Source of the DNA: an uncultured Methanosarcinales archaeon
Lineage (GTDB): Archaea > Nanobdellota > Nanobdellia > Woesearchaeales > JAGVZT01
Length of the DNA stretch: 35,175 nucleotides
Direction: 5' to 3'
Assembly (NCBI GenBank): GCA_964419615.1
Contig: CAYQPU010000016.1
Location: forward strand, 1 to 35,175
The translations under genes and the position numbers were made by a program. The notes beneath the pieces were generated by a model, which searched no databases, had not been told where the DNA came from, and saw only the letters and a program-made list of their open reading frames with translations. Numbering within the stretch: the first letter of the stretch is position 1; the number at the start of each line of letters is the position of its first letter. Below are positions 3,670 through 24,909 of the stretch, piece after piece.

Positions 3670-3957
3670 TCAGAGCACATAATCCTGTTCTGCACGCCAA
3701 TAATTAATACGATCAGTGCTAAACGCTCTTGCTTCAACCATTGATTGTAAATATCCATATAATCCTCTGATTCCACCAACTTCTTGGCATTCTCTATGAT
3801 TTACAGCTTCCAAATAAGCATCATGTAAATCAGAGAAAGTAAACTTTCTGTCTCTAACAGATAGACTATACATTAAGGTCATAGCTGTTACTCTATTTTG
3901 TTGTTGTGCTTCACTTACTTTAATATCTAAATTTTGTGTATCTGAGGCTGCATCCAT
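3670..3957 (-). CDS. Hypothetical protein
   Basis: ORF track 3670..4011; the first ATG (MDAASD) at 3957 is the more plausible start. Confidence 0.55.
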   Translation of the reverse strand: MDAASDTQNLDIKVSEAQQQNRVTAMTLMYSLSVRDRKFTFSDLHDAYLEAVNHRECQEVGGIRGLYGYLQSMVEARAFSTDRINYWRAEQDYVL

Positions 3958-4023
3958 TTTATAGATTAATTGAGATTTTATTTTACAATAAGATTTGTTT
4001 AATAAAAACAAAACAAAGTTACA

Positions 4024-4290
4024 TTATTTTGCTTTTTGTTGTAATTTTTCTCTTGCACTTTCATACAGATTAATTACAGCTTGTTTAATTCCTCCAGAAT
4101 TATCAATGTATTCCTTAACATCATCTATAAACATTCTTAAAAGAGGGAAATCTTGATCATATACCATCATCTTTTTTATGGGACTACCAAATCCATAACG
4201 TGGACTCATAGCACAATACAATCCATCCCCCATTGGAACAAAACCTGTTGGTTTATTTACTTCTTCTTCTAAAGTTTTTTTGTCACTCAT
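4024..4290 (-). CDS. Hypothetical protein
   Basis: 88 aa ATG ORF, co-oriented with its neighbours. Confidence 0.6.
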   Translation of the reverse strand: MSDKKTLEEEVNKPTGFVPMGDGLYCAMSPRYGFGSPIKKMMVYDQDFPLLRMFIDDVKEYIDNSGGIKQAVINLYESAREKLQQKAK

Positions 4291-4358
4291 TTTAATTATT
4301 AAAAAATAATTGAAGAATAAATATGTTTTGGAAACTCTTAATAAAAAATAGGTAATAA

Positions 4359-4697
4359 TTAACTTTGAGCAATTTCTCTGTATTTAATCATGTTTTGATA
4401 TAATATTTTTACGTGTAGAGGAGCACTCCATTTAGGTGTTCTTGTTTGTTTACCAAAAATACTCATACAATGTGCTTGATTTGCAGGGACATCTAGAGTT
4501 CTAGCAAAATATTCTTGAAGTTTATTGGCCATGAGTTTCTTGGATACAATATCAGAATTTGAATCTGCTATAGTTTGTGCTTTCATATATTCACTTCTTG
4601 TAAATGCATTCTCAAAATATTCAATTGCAATTCCAGGATCAGCAACTATATCTACAAGATTTTTGTGTGGTAGGGCTGCTGGAATTGGTAATACCAT
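4359..4697 (-). CDS. Hypothetical protein
   Basis: 112 aa ATG ORF; no family recognised. Confidence 0.6.
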   Translation of the reverse strand: MVLPIPAALPHKNLVDIVADPGIAIEYFENAFTRSEYMKAQTIADSNSDIVSKKLMANKLQEYFARTLDVPANQAHCMSIFGKQTRTPKWSAPLHVKILYQNMIKYREIAQS

Positions 4698-4856
4698 CTT
4701 TAGTTTTCACCTTTTGCAACTTTTATTAAATCATCCATATTATATTTTAGACAAATCAACTGATATATAAATATTTGGATATAGGATCACTATTAAGTGA
4801 ATAATATATAAAAGGCAGAAATTTTTTCTTTTAAGCCTTTCCATAATAATTTATAC

Positions 4857-6236
4857 TTGTTTATCTCATTAAATGTAATGAGATCTCCTAATTATTCAAG
4901 TAATCCTTTAACTTTTATTAGACTCAAACATCATCAAATGGTAAGAGTAGCTCTTATTAATGGATTATCTGATAAAAATGCATTTAGTAGAGAATATCAT
5001 AAAATAGTCAATTCATTATTAGAACCCTCAGATAGAGTTAGGGGATTTCAACCATTAAAAGATACAAGGGCTTGTGGATCAATACTTAGTACAACACAAA
5101 GAACTAAAAAACAAGATGATTACTTGAAGGGATTGCTCACTAGATTGGGATTTTTAAGTGAATTATGGAAAGATATGCCTTATGATATTCTTGAGCAATA
5201 TAATATAATTCAAGATGTAGATAACTTAGATGATCTTGTTGAAAAAGCAATGACACTAACTCCTTTTGGAGTACTTAAAGTGCCAGAAGATATATTTCCA
5301 GAAGGTGATTGGTTAAAACATATTCCATTGGCTAATAAATTATCCTTAACATCAAAACCAAATTTGACAGCATTTGCATATAAACATGGAATAGAACTAC
5401 CTGAAGCTTTTATTGAAAATGGTTATGTATCAAATGAATTGTGGGATACCATTGAAAGTTATGGATATACCTTAAGAACAGCATTATCTAATGCAATAGG
5501 AGAATTAAGAATCAAACCTGATAATCTAATATCTACAGTCTCTTTTAAGAATCGTTCTAGAAAAGAAGAAACTAGGTTAAAACTACATGATGTAATTGAA
5601 GCACTTGAAAGATTTGTTCACCGGCATATGAATGGAGAAGAAATTATTTTTAGATTAGAAGAAGGAAAATATTCTGGTACTGACTCTGCTCGTGTTCCAA
5701 AAAGACTTCCAATTAAACGTACTAAAGATCCAATACAAGCAGAGTATTTTAATCTAGTTGAGGTTCATTATATGCCTGATTTTTTTGAGTCAGGTGATCA
5801 AGCTGGTTGGTTACATACTCTACCTCACTGTTCTTGTCCTTATAGTGTTAATCTGAGGAATTTTGAAGAAAAGAACCAAGATTCAAGAAAAGTGGTTTGG
5901 AATTGGGATCCACATTCAATGGATATGGTTTTAGAAGTATTGTATAGAGAAGATGGTACTAATGCATGGAGACTGCCAAAAAATCCTGTACCAATTGTAA
6001 CTCCCAAATTTATCCAATTTAGTGATGTTTTAAGATATAATACATATGTTGAGACAAAAGGAGGAAGAAGACCTTTACATGAAACAGAAATAGAAATCAC
6101 TTTGTTTGAGTATGCAAAAAAATATGTATTTAATGCAATGTTTTGCAAACCAAATGAAATTCCAAATGATATAATTGATATGGATTATGTACTGGATCCA
6201 ATGTATTTTACAGCTGACAAATTAGATATGTTGTAA
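4857..6236 (+). CDS. Large hypothetical protein with a SWIM-like metal-binding motif
   Basis: 459 aa ORF (true start may be ATG 4878 or 4938); HCSCP at about 5826-5840 followed by WDPH at 5904-5915. Confidence 0.7.
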   Translation: MFISLNVMRSPNYSSNPLTFIRLKHHQMVRVALINGLSDKNAFSREYHKIVNSLLEPSDRVRGFQPLKDTRACGSILSTTQRTKKQDDYLKGLLTRLGFLSELWKDMPYDILEQYNIIQDVDNLDDLVEKAMTLTPFGVLKVPEDIFPEGDWLKHIPLANKLSLTSKPNLTAFAYKHGIELPEAFIENGYVSNELWDTIESYGYTLRTALSNAIGELRIKPDNLISTVSFKNRSRKEETRLKLHDVIEALERFVHRHMNGEEIIFRLEEGKYSGTDSARVPKRLPIKRTKDPIQAEYFNLVEVHYMPDFFESGDQAGWLHTLPHCSCPYSVNLRNFEEKNQDSRKVVWNWDPHSMDMVLEVLYREDGTNAWRLPKNPVPIVTPKFIQFSDVLRYNTYVETKGGRRPLHETEIEITLFEYAKKYVFNAMFCKPNEIPNDIIDMDYVLDPMYFTADKLDML

Positions 6237-12517: not shown

Positions 12518-12652
12518 AAAATATGTGTATAAAAAGGTTGTGGAATACTATGTGTATTCCAAACATCTGGAAATTGTCAAGAATCAAATATTCTTGATCA
12601 TGAAGATAATTCTTTGAATTCTGACACTTAGTTTTCCATTTGGTTTTGAAAG

Positions 12653-12741
12653 TGAGCCTGCAGGGATTCGAACCCCGACTAAGTGGTTTCCTCAGTAAAA
12701 ACTACCGAAGCCACTCGTGCTTTCCATTACACTACAGGCTC
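12653..12741 (-). tRNA. tRNA-Arg(UCG) with a 17-nt canonical intron (12688..12704)
   Basis: Acceptor GAGCCTG/CAGGCTC, anticodon stem AGTGG/CCACT, loop CT-TCG-G|A, T-arm CGGGG-TTCGAAT-CCCTG, A20 in the D-loop. Bulge-helix-bulge: CTTC/GAGG helix and AGT/ACT outer helix. No encoded CCA. Confidence 0.95.
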
Positions 12742-14416: not shown

Positions 14417-15610
14417 ATGAAATTTAGATTAATTATATTTTTGGTATTAATACTCCTAATTAGCACAACTGTGCAAGCATTAAGTTCATATACTGTTTTA
14501 GATAATTCACTTTCTTCATGTTCTTGTATAATAATCTCAAACCCTATTTTTATTGAGAATATGGGTTTATCTATGGAATTTTATTCTGTAACTCAAGAAG
14601 GAACTGCTGCGGATTGGGCAAAGGTATTTCCAGCAACATTAAGCCTAAAACCTGGAGAAACCATTGAAATCACCAATTTAATTAATCCACCTTGTGGTGT
14701 TTTTGGAAATTATGAATTAATAACAAATATTGTGTCCACAAATGATCAGAGATCATTTAAACAAGATATTGAATTAAATAACTGTGCAAATTATAAAATC
14801 TCAGCTGGCACACTTTCAAAACAGGGATGTAGCTGTGTTTCTTATGAATTTGATTTTTGGATAACAAATACTGGAAATTATGATGAAACATTTGATCTTA
14901 GTACATCCAAACTGTCCCAATATTCAACAGTAACATCTCCAATCATGTTAGCACCAGGAGAGTCTGAACAAGTAGTAATTTACATAAGTCCCTGTGAGGA
15001 ATATGGGAAACAGGATTTAACTGTTAATATTGTTTCAGATATATCAAAATTTAAAGCAGAAGTTCCAATAAGTTTAGAATTAGAAAACTGCCAAGATACA
15101 CAAGATACAAATTCAACTCAAATTAATAAGAAAGATATAATCTCAAATGGGAAAAAAGTTTTGTTAGGGATGATTGCGTTCTTTGGGCTGATTCTTTTGA
15201 TATTAGTCTTAATATTCATTATCAAACCAAAGGCAAAAACTTACTACAAAAAAATTAAAATAAAACCATCTAAAAGAAAAAAGAAGTTTCCTTGGAAAAA
15301 AATTCTATTAATACTTCTTATTTTACTAGCAATAAGTGTATTTGCATTAACTATGTTTAAGCTAATTAAATACTTACTAAATACTCTTTCACCAATAACA
15401 CCAATTATTCCAACAAATTTTACAAACAAAACATCTCCAGTAAAATCCATTAAACCAAAAATATCTGGTTTTCCAGTAATCTTTTTGAAAAGTGTTTTTA
15501 ACTTTGTAAAAAACTTGTTAATTAAATATTACCCATACATGCTTTTAGGATTAATAGTTCTTGCAGTCATAATTTTGGTTTTAACTCTAATTAAGAAAAA
15601 GAGAAAATAG
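14417..15610 (+). CDS. Cell-surface protein with two Cys-patterned Ig-like repeats and C-terminal TM anchors
   Basis: N-terminal signal peptide; two roughly 90-aa repeats (CSC..I.N.G..L.PGE..PC..G..NC); hydrophobic segments separated by Lys-rich linkers. Confidence 0.8.
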   Translation: MKFRLIIFLVLILLISTTVQALSSYTVLDNSLSSCSCIIISNPIFIENMGLSMEFYSVTQEGTAADWAKVFPATLSLKPGETIEITNLINPPCGVFGNYELITNIVSTNDQRSFKQDIELNNCANYKISAGTLSKQGCSCVSYEFDFWITNTGNYDETFDLSTSKLSQYSTVTSPIMLAPGESEQVVIYISPCEEYGKQDLTVNIVSDISKFKAEVPISLELENCQDTQDTNSTQINKKDIISNGKKVLLGMIAFFGLILLILVLIFIIKPKAKTYYKKIKIKPSKRKKKFPWKKILLILLILLAISVFALTMFKLIKYLLNTLSPITPIIPTNFTNKTSPVKSIKPKISGFPVIFLKSVFNFVKNLLIKYYPYMLLGLIVLAVIILVLTLIKKKRK

Positions 15611-16738
15611 TTTGTGGATTATTCCCACCATAAATAAGATAATAACAACCGTTCTTAATAATAATCCTGCTTTGATTGAGTACTCCGGTTTTCTATCTCC
15701 CTTTGTTTGAGCCTTCTTGTGCATAAGGACAATTAAAGTTCCATTAATTCCACCAATTATAACTCCTGAAATACCTATCACTTGTATAAAACTTGTTAAA
15801 TTAGTTACAGATATGATAAAAGGAATAATGAGTGTAAATAAAAAAGCCTGATTTTTGGTTTTCTTAAGATCATACTCAAACATTTCCATTAATGCTACAG
15901 CAGACACAATAAAAGAAGCAATCATTCCACAAAGTGCAAATAGATTACCAAAAATAAACATATGCTTACCAACATATTGTCCTATTGCAATTGTGGCTAT
16001 CCTTTGATTTGAATCAAGTGAATTAAATCCGGATGTTCCAACAATTCCTACAACAATTATTGTAAATGCAATATACACAATAACTGGAATGAGCATTCCC
16101 ATAAAAATTGATTTTTTCAGTGATTTCTTGTTTTTTATGAGTTCTTCTCTCATTTCAGGAATAGCTGAAGTTCCCATGTAAGCAAATAAAATCACACCAT
16201 AGGGAACTAATAATTTTGTTAAATCAAAACTCTTTAAATTTGCTGGATCAACTTTACTTATTCCAAAACCACATATCAATACAACACAGATTATGATTAA
16301 TGTTGTAAGAATAACCTCTGATTTTTCCAGGCCCTTAATCCCAGAATAAACAATAAGTGATCCTATCACAAAGAAACCAATACTAAATCCTAAGCTTGAG
16401 CCTCCAAATATGGCTTGCATAGATATTCCAATTCCTATAATATATGCAATCAAAGCGCCATAAGCTCCAATTATCATTGAAACTGAGGCTATAGTCTTTC
16501 CAATCTTCCCAAGGTATTTTTCAGCATATCCTGTAAGTTGATGAATTCCTTTTGTTCTAAGAGTAACTTCACCATAGAGCATGTAAATTATCAACACTAA
16601 AGCTCCAATCAATAATAAATCAAAAATTCCAGTAAGTAATCCTGCTTGAGAAACAACATAAGGAATACCAAGCACACCAGCTCCTATTACTGCTCCTGCT
16701 AGAGTTGATATTGCCTGCAAAACCTCTTTTTTTCCCAT
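15587..16738 (-). CDS. Aromatic amino acid (Trp/Tyr permease-like, APC superfamily) transporter
   Basis: STLAGAVIGAGVLGIPY, YGEVTLRT, PYGVILFAY...IPE; about 11 TM segments. Start set at ATG 16738 because the longer ORF runs through the tRNA-Trp gene. Confidence 0.85.
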   Translation of the reverse strand: MGKKEVLQAISTLAGAVIGAGVLGIPYVVSQAGLLTGIFDLLLIGALVLIIYMLYGEVTLRTKGIHQLTGYAEKYLGKIGKTIASVSMIIGAYGALIAYIIGIGISMQAIFGGSSLGFSIGFFVIGSLIVYSGIKGLEKSEVILTTLIIICVVLICGFGISKVDPANLKSFDLTKLLVPYGVILFAYMGTSAIPEMREELIKNKKSLKKSIFMGMLIPVIVYIAFTIIVVGIVGTSGFNSLDSNQRIATIAIGQYVGKHMFIFGNLFALCGMIASFIVSAVALMEMFEYDLKKTKNQAFLFTLIIPFIISVTNLTSFIQVIGISGVIIGGINGTLIVLMHKKAQTKGDRKPEYSIKAGLLLRTVVIILFMVGIIHKLFSLFLN

Positions 16739-16746
16739 AGTAAAAA

Positions 16747-17027
16747 TGGGGACGCAGGGACTTTCAAAACCTTTTAATGGCTTGAGTCGTGGCCATCTTG
16801 TGTTTATAAACGCCACGTCATGGGATTTTAATCCCATTACTTTTGGTCAAGCTTTTGCTTGCGTAGCAAGGAAAAGGTTGATTTGAACCCCGATCCATTG
16901 GTGTCTTCATCCGCTGATACACCAGTAGTTCTTCACAGCTTTACGCTCAGCGCTCCTCTGGAGCCAATGATGATAGTATCCCCAAGATCAATATTATTTG
17001 ACCTTGACCAGGTTACACCACGTCCCC
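16747..17027 (-). tRNA. tRNA-Trp(CCA) interrupted by three introns (about 16977..17007, 16903..16957, 16761..16881)
   Basis: Removing the introns gives a 74-nt cloverleaf GGGGACG TG GTGT AACCTGGCTA TCAT C ATTGG CTCCAGA CCAAT GGAT CGGGG TTCAAAT CCCTG CGTCCCC A, closely resembling euryarchaeal tRNA-Trp. The D-loop intron junction is uncertain by 1-2 nt. Confidence 0.88.
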
Positions 17028-17051
17028 CTGCAGACAAAAAATCTTTGGATA

Positions 17052-17059
17052 TATATAAA
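17052..17059 (-). promoter_or_regulatory. TATA box of tRNA-Trp
   Basis: TTTATATA on the minus strand, 24 nt before G1 of the tRNA. Confidence 0.6.
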
Positions 17060-17141
17060 TCTTATTGGTTAGTAGCGTATTATTTATATTCACAGATCAA
17101 TTATTAATAATCTGGGTAATCAAAATAAATTGGTGAAATAA

Positions 17142-24789: not shown

Positions 24790-24909
24790 TGATGAACGGC
24801 CACAGTGGCTTGGTCCTACCCGATCTCATCCCGAACTCGGAAGTAAAACAGGCCAACGTTCAGGACATTACTGTACTTTTGTACGGGAAATCCAGAAAGC
24901 TGTTCATCA
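24790..24909 (+). rRNA. rrf: 5S rRNA (stand-alone)
   Basis: 120 nt; terminal helix TGATGAACGGC/GCTGTTCATCA; conserved CCCGATCTCATCCCGAACTCGGAAGTAAA and GGGAAA segments; T-run immediately after. Confidence 0.93.

Follow-up and report, generated by a model that had tools for sequence, protein, structure and literature searches.

The window analyzed here is a 35,175 nt stretch of DNA from the genome designated G000, and within it a G+C-rich spacer was proposed, from the letters alone, to hide a cryptic tRNA-Trp(CCA) gene interrupted by introns in the D loop, at 37/38, and at 59/60 (hereafter the original prediction). This raises the questions of whether the region is a genuine tRNA gene, whether it still functions as one, and what the introns, amounting to 207 of its 281 nt, represent. 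The locus is a real, functional-looking, and conserved tRNA-Trp gene in four pieces, carrying three protein-spliced introns of different ages. We consider it very probable that this tRNA-Trp(CCA) gene is functional and was inherited vertically in a Woesearchaeota archaeon, that its three introns, each with its own history, are removed by EndA/RtcB splicing, and that the 37/38 intron guides the methylation of C34 and C39. As such, it adds a clear new case to a phenomenon already known and does not represent a novel type of gene. The gene lies on the minus strand at 17027-16747, with four exons and three introns; window positions are used throughout, and its parts are as follows.

17051..17060, minus strand: TATA-like box ATTTATATAT, about 25-33 nt upstream of G1, read from sequence
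17008..17027, minus strand: exon 1, 20 nt; acceptor 5′ strand, U8 G9, D stem 5′ strand, D loop to G18 G19; identical or nearly so in six orthologues
16977..17007, minus strand: intron 1 (I1), 31 nt, in the D loop at G19/C20; 10-bp hairpin
16958..16976, minus strand: exon 2, 19 nt; C20 U A21, D stem 3′ strand, C26, anticodon stem 5′ strand, C32 U33 C34 C35 A36 G37
16903..16957, minus strand: intron 2 (I2), 55 nt, site 37/38; putative box C/D-type guide intron
16882..16902, minus strand: exon 3, 21 nt; A38, anticodon stem 3′ strand, variable loop GGAU, T stem 5′ strand, T loop to A59
16761..16881, minus strand: intron 3 (I3), 121 nt, site 59/60; member of a multi-copy structured T-loop intron family
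16747..16760, minus strand: exon 4, 14 nt; U60, T stem 3′ strand, acceptor 3′ strand, discriminator A73; CCA not encoded
16742..16746, minus strand: T5 run directly after A73, resembling an archaeal terminator

When the four exons were joined, the 74-nt product was identified by ARAGORN as tRNA-Trp(cca). It consists of a 7-bp acceptor stem (GGGGACG/CGTCCCC plus A73), the D arm GTGT-AACCTGGCTA-TCAT, the anticodon arm ATTGG-CTCCAGA-CCAAT, the variable loop GGAT, and the T arm CGGGG-TTCAAAT-CCCTG, and U8, A14, G18G19, U33, and T54-C56 are all present. The D stem contains a single U13.U22 mismatch, which is common to all orthologues. An alternative D arm, GTGT/ATAC, would be perfectly paired, but it was rejected as it leaves six surplus bases before the anticodon stem, and the orthologues lacking the D-loop intron read AACCTGGCTA-TCAT. 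The anticodon CCA is placed in the 7-nt loop CUCCAGA, and the product carries G1-C72 and A73; G1-C72 and the discriminator A73 are the archaeal/eukaryal tryptophan identity elements. A TATA-like TTTATATA also precedes the orthologues in G001, G003, and G014, and T-runs follow those in G001, G004, and G007.

In the unspliced locus, no tRNA was detected by ARAGORN (default, with the -i intron option, or relaxed), nor by Rfam RF00005 at the gathering threshold or at E<=10. Since three introns interrupt the gene, the standard tRNA models are blind to its unspliced form, and these negative results are no evidence against its membership in the tRNA-Trp family. The fold of the 281-nt precursor had an energy of -96 kcal/mol, versus -73 +/- 4.9 kcal/mol in shuffled sequences, being more stable than all of 200 shuffles (z -4.8).

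The three splice sites were scored on a layout of an outer helix, a 4-bp central helix, and a 3-nt bulge that straddles the cut, with two exon bases before it and one intron base after it, the 3′ strand being mirrored. The 59/60 site is a strict bulge-helix-bulge, in which TTCA/TGAA forms four of four pairs, the bulges are AA|U and AG|U, the T stem serves as the outer helix, and an 8-bp inner helix follows. At the D-loop site, three of the four central pairs are formed (U.G, C-G, and C-G, with an A.A mismatch adjoining the 3′ bulge), the bulges are GG|U and UA|C, and the inner helix has 9 bp. The 37/38 site, with the anticodon stem as the outer helix, likewise forms three of four pairs in CUCC/GAAG (a C34.A mismatch) and has bulges AG|A and AC|A; in G000, no inner helix adjoins its 5′ bulge, and a 6-bp CGCUGA/UCAGCG helix lies deeper inside. 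A perfect central helix at 37/38 (GGAG) was found only in G003. Splice registers shifted by +1 or +2 give an identical product with worse motif scores and were rejected. The original prediction had given intron lengths of 31, 55, and 121 nt, which proved exact by ARAGORN on the joined exons and by the orthologues described below; the I1 hairpin CAAGGTCAA/TTGATCTTG and the TTCA/TGAA helix with 3-nt bulges are also as it described. The site scores agree with its grading of the 59/60 motif as good and the other two as relaxed, with one mismatch each in I1 and I2, and default scans do miss the gene, as it had anticipated.

A DNA search of 40 related genomes retrieved orthologues in which the whole gene could be read in six (G001, G002, G003, G004, G007, and G014). 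The genomes searched in this work included the unpublished G006, from which no conclusion is drawn. All seven spliced products, from the window and the six orthologues, are 74 nt long and were called tRNA-Trp(cca) by ARAGORN. All three introns are present in G001, a member of the same genus. The genes of G002 and G004 carry the D-loop and 37/38 introns with an uninterrupted T loop (GGTTCAAATCCCTG), those of G003 and G007 carry the 37/38 and T-loop introns with an uninterrupted D loop (AACCTGGCTA), and that of G014, from another family, carries the 37/38 intron alone, its D loop again reading AACCTGGCTA. Because relatives display the intron-free states, the exon joins are fixed independently of the folding rules.

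Substitutions among the orthologues were compensatory. In the acceptor stem of G014, A5-U68, C6-G67, and G7-C66 are replaced by G-C, U-A, and A-U, respectively; in the anticodon stem, A27-U43 is changed to G-C and U29-A41 to A-U (27:43 and 29:41); and in the T stem, G50.U64 is changed to A-U or U-A (50:64). In an alignment of 24 sequences, the anticodon stem was 100% paired, with three covarying pairs. Such changes indicate purifying selection on the tRNA-Trp structure across species. The mature tRNA-Trp of G000 and G001 is identical at 73 of 74 positions, yet the intron found at the I3 site in G001 is an unrelated one of 91 nt. Among 20 orthologues from across the order, ARAGORN with the intron option recognized nine as single-intron tRNA-Trp and the other 11 carried extra inserts in the D or T arm; extra introns in the tRNA-Trp gene are thus common in the order. 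Three introns were also present in the orthologues of G078, G141, and G050.

The 37/38 intron shows a conserved internal layout: a guide GGAGC(G), CUGA, a GC hairpin of 2-3 bp, a 3-nt N-R-U bulge, GAAGA, a 12-nt spacer containing UGGUGU, a variable stretch, and a 3′-terminal (G)AUGAAGA. In the window these elements are placed as follows, the names being those of the box C/D-type reading.

16952..16956, minus strand: guide 1 (GGAGC); pairs with G31-C35, the fifth base upstream of the D box falling on C34
16947..16950, minus strand: box D (CUGA); position 1 covaries with C-box position 6
16938-16946, minus strand: short GC hairpin joining box D to box C; the stem covaries
16930..16937, minus strand: box C variant UGUGAAGA; kink-turn layout of a 2-3 bp stem, a 3-nt N-R-U bulge, and GA
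16918..16929, minus strand: guide 2, 12 nt; its core UGGUGU pairs with the last two intron bases and A38-A41, the fifth base falling on C39
16904..16910, minus strand: 3′-terminal AUGAAGA box; its GAAG doubles as the 3′ strand of the central splice helix

R1, a covariance model spanning the anticodon arm and the 37/38 intron, was searched in 151 genomes sampled across the order. Exactly one match per genome was obtained in 89 of the 151 genomes, and in 70 of the 116 high-quality ones; one weak match falls in the unpublished genome G138, on which none of the conclusions rely. Covariation of the guides and the kink-turn was evaluated on an alignment of 24 R1-matched sequences. Guide 1 retains the pairing GGAG:CUCC (C32-C35) in all 24; the duplex amounts to 5 bp in G000, is extended by an A36-U pair in 21 of the 24, and in a few by a further pair with G37. 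The first D-box position and the sixth C-box position form AU in 12, CG in nine, and UA in two of the 24 sequences, and the next position is a U-A pair in 10 and a non-standard pair in 14, as expected of a kink-turn. In G000 the kink-turn is made of CUGA, the GC hairpin, a UGU bulge, and GAAGA, and in the relatives GAUGAUUA pairs with AUGA. The consensus of guide 2 is UGGUNU, and it covaries with the intron end: GC in seven, AU in four, CG in four, and UA in one for the last intron base, and UA in 15 and AU in two for the penultimate one. Counted back from where the 12-nt spacer ends, the fifth base of guide 2 falls on C39. The genes of fibrillarin, Nop5, and L7Ae are all present in G000. These features suggest that I2 is a conserved box C/D-type methylation guide of archaeal tRNA-Trp that targets positions 34 and 39; the intron is old in the order.

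The four bases following guide 2 are unlike CUGA and give no D′ box, and a second kink-turn was not evident. The 3′-terminal box is kept as (U)GAUGAAG in most orthologues and may represent a second C box. The Rfam box C/D families gave no significant match to the intron, the best being snoU61 with 14.7 bits and E = 3.2, and we know of no Rfam family for the tRNA-Trp guide intron. A strict regular expression for C/D sRNAs found no hits over the genome, and the equally empty control makes this search uninformative. By itself I2 is not unusually stable (z -0.6), which fits a guide RNA. I2 could be a circularly permuted box C/D guide: in the linear precursor guide 1 opens it and a UGAUGA-like box closes it, and the canonical order of elements (C, 12-nt guide, D′, C′, 8-12-nt guide, D) would arise only across the splice junction, after excision and circularization by RtcB. 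The three-intron gene would in this case be kept beside its intronless paralogue as the sole source of the circular guide, and an ordinary alpha4-type EndA that has no known specificity loop would carry out the processing; we hold this extended proposal to be rather doubtful.

The two other introns show different distributions. I1 consists of the hairpin CAAGGTCAA/TTGATCTTG, with a folding energy of -10.1 kcal/mol (z -4.5), and is single-copy in G000. It occurs at the same site with similar ends in G001, G002, and G004, and in the more distant G082, and is absent from the orthologues of G003, G007, and G014. I3 had 12 further BLAST matches in G000 with 70-89% identity, most of them at GGTTCAAA|...GAAAG|TCC of other tRNA genes, and a crude pattern found about 22 T-loop 59/60 introns of the I3 type in this genome. 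Some of the pattern-found introns span 150-185 nt, beyond the range of 11-129 nt quoted for archaeal tRNA introns (PMC4090602). The I3 fold has conserved hairpins (z -4.1). I3 is absent in G002, G004, and G014, and the unrelated 91-nt intron that occupies 59/60 in the same-genus G001 indicates intron turnover at this site. Both I1 and I3 appear to be later additions than I2. Extra introns at still other places were seen in the tRNA-Trp orthologues of G078, G141, G050, G145, and G143, namely in the D stem/26 region, the D loop, the 5′ strand of the T stem, and at 59/60, which shows that this single gene gained introns repeatedly and independently.

The splicing enzymes encoded in G000 were then inspected. 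A single EndA gene is present (G000:C3:32058-32714; L022:1474-2133, minus strand), coding for a protein of 219 aa with PF02778 and PF01974, and a tblastn search of the genome with this EndA found no paralogue or beta subunit below E = 0.7. Its residues 55-219 align to the M. jannaschii EndA (1A79) with two 1-residue gaps and no insert; the insert present in the N. equitans alpha subunit is missing from it. Beyond this core, the protein has just a Lys-rich tail of about 50 residues at its N terminus (MPRKKKAVEKKITKKK...), the length of which varies in relatives. The G000 enzyme is thus a single, plain alpha-type EndA whose sequence shows no known broad-specificity loop, and an RtcB ligase is encoded as well. 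The original prediction had taken the relaxed motifs to imply a broad-specificity endonuclease; the sole EndA being of the alpha type, this was not supported. The motifs at the non-canonical sites being strict or nearly so, such breadth of specificity may be unnecessary here.

Genome G000 comprises 1.48 Mb with 33% G+C and is 99.4% complete; standard tools found about 10 tRNA genes, several of them with introns of at least 80 nt. The host is a Woesearchaeota (DPANN) archaeon; its splicing endonuclease gene has its closest relatives in MAGs that bear the label Candidatus Woesearchaeota or Nanoarchaeota. Besides the three-intron gene, this genome holds two tRNA(CCA) genes.

G000:C5:56835-56906: intronless tRNA-Trp(CCA), 58 bits with Rfam
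G000:C5:56835-57097 (L013:6836-7098): tandem tRNA(CCA) pair, the two genes 2 nt apart

Contrary to the concern of the original prediction that the genome may be reported as lacking tRNA-Trp, the intronless copy is easily found, and there is a third tRNA(CCA). Because of these two other tRNA(CCA) genes, the three-intron copy is not strictly required in G000. Orthologues of the intronless gene are present in G001, in the same gene context, and in G002, with a compensatory T-stem change; by ARAGORN, among 21 relatives, the intronless type was found only in G000, G001, G002, and G013. In G003, G004, G007, and G014, the type of the three-intron gene is the sole tRNA-Trp found. Between G000 and G001, the intronless paralogue is identical at about 65 of 73 positions, versus 73 of 74 for the three-intron tRNA-Trp. 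A pattern search for intronless copies (GGCTCCAGACC) gave matches about as frequent as its reversed control and was uninformative. The second tRNA(CCA) of the tandem has low-G+C stems, one T-loop intron of the family type, and no counterpart in G001. The pair is flanked by ORFs of 142, 206, and >109 aa, none with a Pfam match, and the contig ends just beyond.

Two TrpRS genes lie about 1 kb apart in G000 (G000:C3:67464-69257 and 70215-71378; L107:965-2758 and 3716-4879, minus strand), coding for 597 aa, including a 225-aa N-terminal extension, and 387 aa. Identity between the two is only about 30%, and just as low to the one TrpRS that G001 and G002 each encode; the G001 and G002 enzymes share 69% identity. 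No close orthologue of the G001/G002 TrpRS was found in the 99%-complete G000 assembly, which suggests TrpRS replacement within the genus. In G001, the TrpRS gene is located about 1.3 kb from the intronless tRNA-Trp. A pairing of the extra tRNA-Trp genes with the two TrpRSs was considered and rejected, as G001 and G002 have both tRNA-Trp types and a single TrpRS.

Beside the observed exon map, conservation, covariation, splice motifs, and enzyme genes, we infer the following transcription, splicing, and methylation, and their order. The gene would be transcribed from its own TATA box into a precursor of about 281 nt. EndA would cut the three bulge-helix-bulge sites and RtcB would join the four exons into the 74-nt tRNA, to which CCA would be added afterwards. 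The 37/38 intron, together with L7Ae, Nop5, and fibrillarin, would direct 2′-O-methylation of C34 and C39. As guide 2 pairs across the intron-exon junction, at least the guide 2 step, on C39, would take place before the 37/38 intron is removed. As to their origin, the D-loop intron would be a short hairpin acquired in an ancestor of part of the order, and the 121-nt T-loop intron a recent copy of a structured family that fills 59/60 in many tRNA genes of G000. The role of I2 as a guide, the membership of I3 in a repeated family, and a DPANN host in which extra tRNA-Trp introns are common were all missed by the original prediction.

Three other explanations were weighed against this reading. 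That the cloverleaf arose by chance in a G+C-rich spacer, or that the plus-strand ORFs (16746-16886 and 16859-17107) are the real genes, is hardly conceivable and is already refuted by the orthologue map, the R1 matches, and the covariation: both ORFs are open and a weak plus-strand SNORD50-like match exists (E = 0.58, not significant), but neither ORF matches a Pfam family or is conserved, no coding frame would survive the whole-intron indels between relatives, and the ATGATGA under the SNORD50-like match is the antisense of the conserved exon 2. It is also very improbable that the gene is a decaying pseudogene, redundant beside the other tRNA-Trp genes and gathering insertions. The original prediction held that another intact copy would make this gene a pseudogene; in form such a copy exists, while in substance it is the three-intron gene that family and order have conserved, with compensatory changes, a TATA box, and a T-run. 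The other tRNA(CCA) genes, the three insertions, and the two imperfect splice motifs would agree with decay. Against it, the cloverleaf is unbroken at every exon position, the orthologue changes are compensatory and not random, promoter and terminator are retained, and the insertions sit within well-formed splice motifs; moreover, T-loop introns of the same type interrupt about 20 further tRNA genes in this 99%-complete genome, and these cannot all be dead.

The remaining explanation, that the gene is now mainly a guide-RNA host, is improbable, but less so than decay. In this case, the intronless tRNA-Trp on C5 would serve translation, the 37/38 intron would be the sole source of the C34/C39 guide, and the tRNA body would be mostly a processing scaffold. 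In its favor, G000 does have an intronless tRNA-Trp(CCA) whose orthologues occur in G001 and G002, guide 1 fits the anticodon loop of this copy equally well, and the excised H. volcanii intron works in trans (PMC4090602, PMC11408192). However, the exons of the three-intron gene are better conserved between G000 and G001 than the intronless paralogue, pairing is maintained in all four stems via compensatory changes, no second tRNA-Trp was found in G003, G004, G007, and G014, and guide 2 requires the intron-exon junction of the three-intron precursor. A functional tRNA-Trp(CCA) gene that also carries the guide remains the preferred reading.

This gene combines two known things, multi-intron archaeal tRNAs and the tRNA-Trp guide intron, in a DPANN host. 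In archaeal tRNA-Trp, the intron harbors a box C/D RNA directed at positions 34 and 39 (PMC4090602, PMC11408192); box C/D introns of Haloferax volcanii, Pyrococcus, and other Euryarchaeota are described by Clouet d'Orval (2001) and Singh (2004), as cited in PMC4090602 and PMC11408192, and the Sulfolobus solfataricus tRNA-Trp intron is a 65-nt circular RNA with the same two complementarities and without consensus boxes (PMC3326292). The G000 intron resembles these in interrupting tRNA-Trp CCA at 37/38, in its targets 34 and 39, in following the fifth-base rule, in its junction-spanning duplex, and in the presence of the fibrillarin, Nop5, and L7Ae genes. It is also of similar size, 55 nt versus a median of 65 nt. 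Unlike in the known tRNA-Trp intron, its box C is a UGAAGA variant and position 39 is a C, not a U. It has one evident, hairpin-closed kink-turn, guide 1 at the extreme 5′ end, and a C-like box at the 3′ end, and its box order may differ from the known one. The host is a DPANN archaeon here, while the cited reviews name only Euryarchaeota, plus Sulfolobus without consensus boxes. The tRNA-Trp methylation-guide intron would thereby be extended to DPANN, which supports its great age in Archaea.

Multi-intron tRNA genes with "transposed" paralogous introns are described in Thermoproteales (Sugahara 2008 and Fujishima 2010, as cited in PMC4090602). As in these, up to three protein-spliced introns per tRNA gene occur at canonical and non-canonical sites, and near-identical introns are found in unrelated tRNA genes of one genome. 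Unlike Thermoproteales, G000 belongs to the DPANN superphylum and has a small, low-G+C genome, its family intron is long and structured (121 nt; cited range 11-129 nt, PMC4090602) and concentrated at 59/60, and its EndA is a single alpha-type subunit, in contrast to the (alpha-beta)2 EndA with a specificity loop. In DPANN, incomplete tRNA sets point to undetected disrupted genes, and tRNA disruption was linked to an "L3" insert in EndA (Kaneta et al., 2018, PMC5829648), with ARMAN-2 having an epsilon2 EndA as cited therein. The tRNA-Trp of G000 is such an easily missed disrupted gene, but its EndA lacks the insert and has only the Lys-rich N-terminal tail. A single alpha-type EndA without known specificity insert thus appears to serve three intron positions, which bears on the accepted connection of EndA type with intron diversity. 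The gene sets of Woesearchaeota and similar DPANN will be wrongly judged incomplete if searches do not allow for multi-intron tRNAs, a concern raised by Kaneta et al. (2018, PMC5829648). One locus combines three histories, that is, an order-wide constrained guide intron, a clade-level hairpin intron, and a young copy of a spreading family, and the relatives hold every intermediate state, providing a natural series for gain, loss, and replacement of protein-spliced introns.

Several other features surround the gene in the window. A gene of the Trp/Tyr permease family (PF03222, E = 6e-33) lies at 15587-16738 on the minus strand and starts 8 nt after the tRNA-Trp discriminator base. Because this gap is so short, the permease would either be co-transcribed with tRNA-Trp or start from a promoter located within the T-loop intron, where CCATTAAAAGG precedes the ATG by about 25-35 nt. 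The adjacency of tRNA-Trp and permease is also seen in G001, G002, and G003; in the more distant G143 it was recognized from the beginning of the reading frame that follows the tRNA. A short-intron tRNA of ambiguous identity is located at 12652-12741 on the minus strand, called Pro(CGG) by ARAGORN without the intron option and SeC(TCA) with it, and a 5S rRNA gene (71 bits) is present at 24792-24908 on the plus strand.
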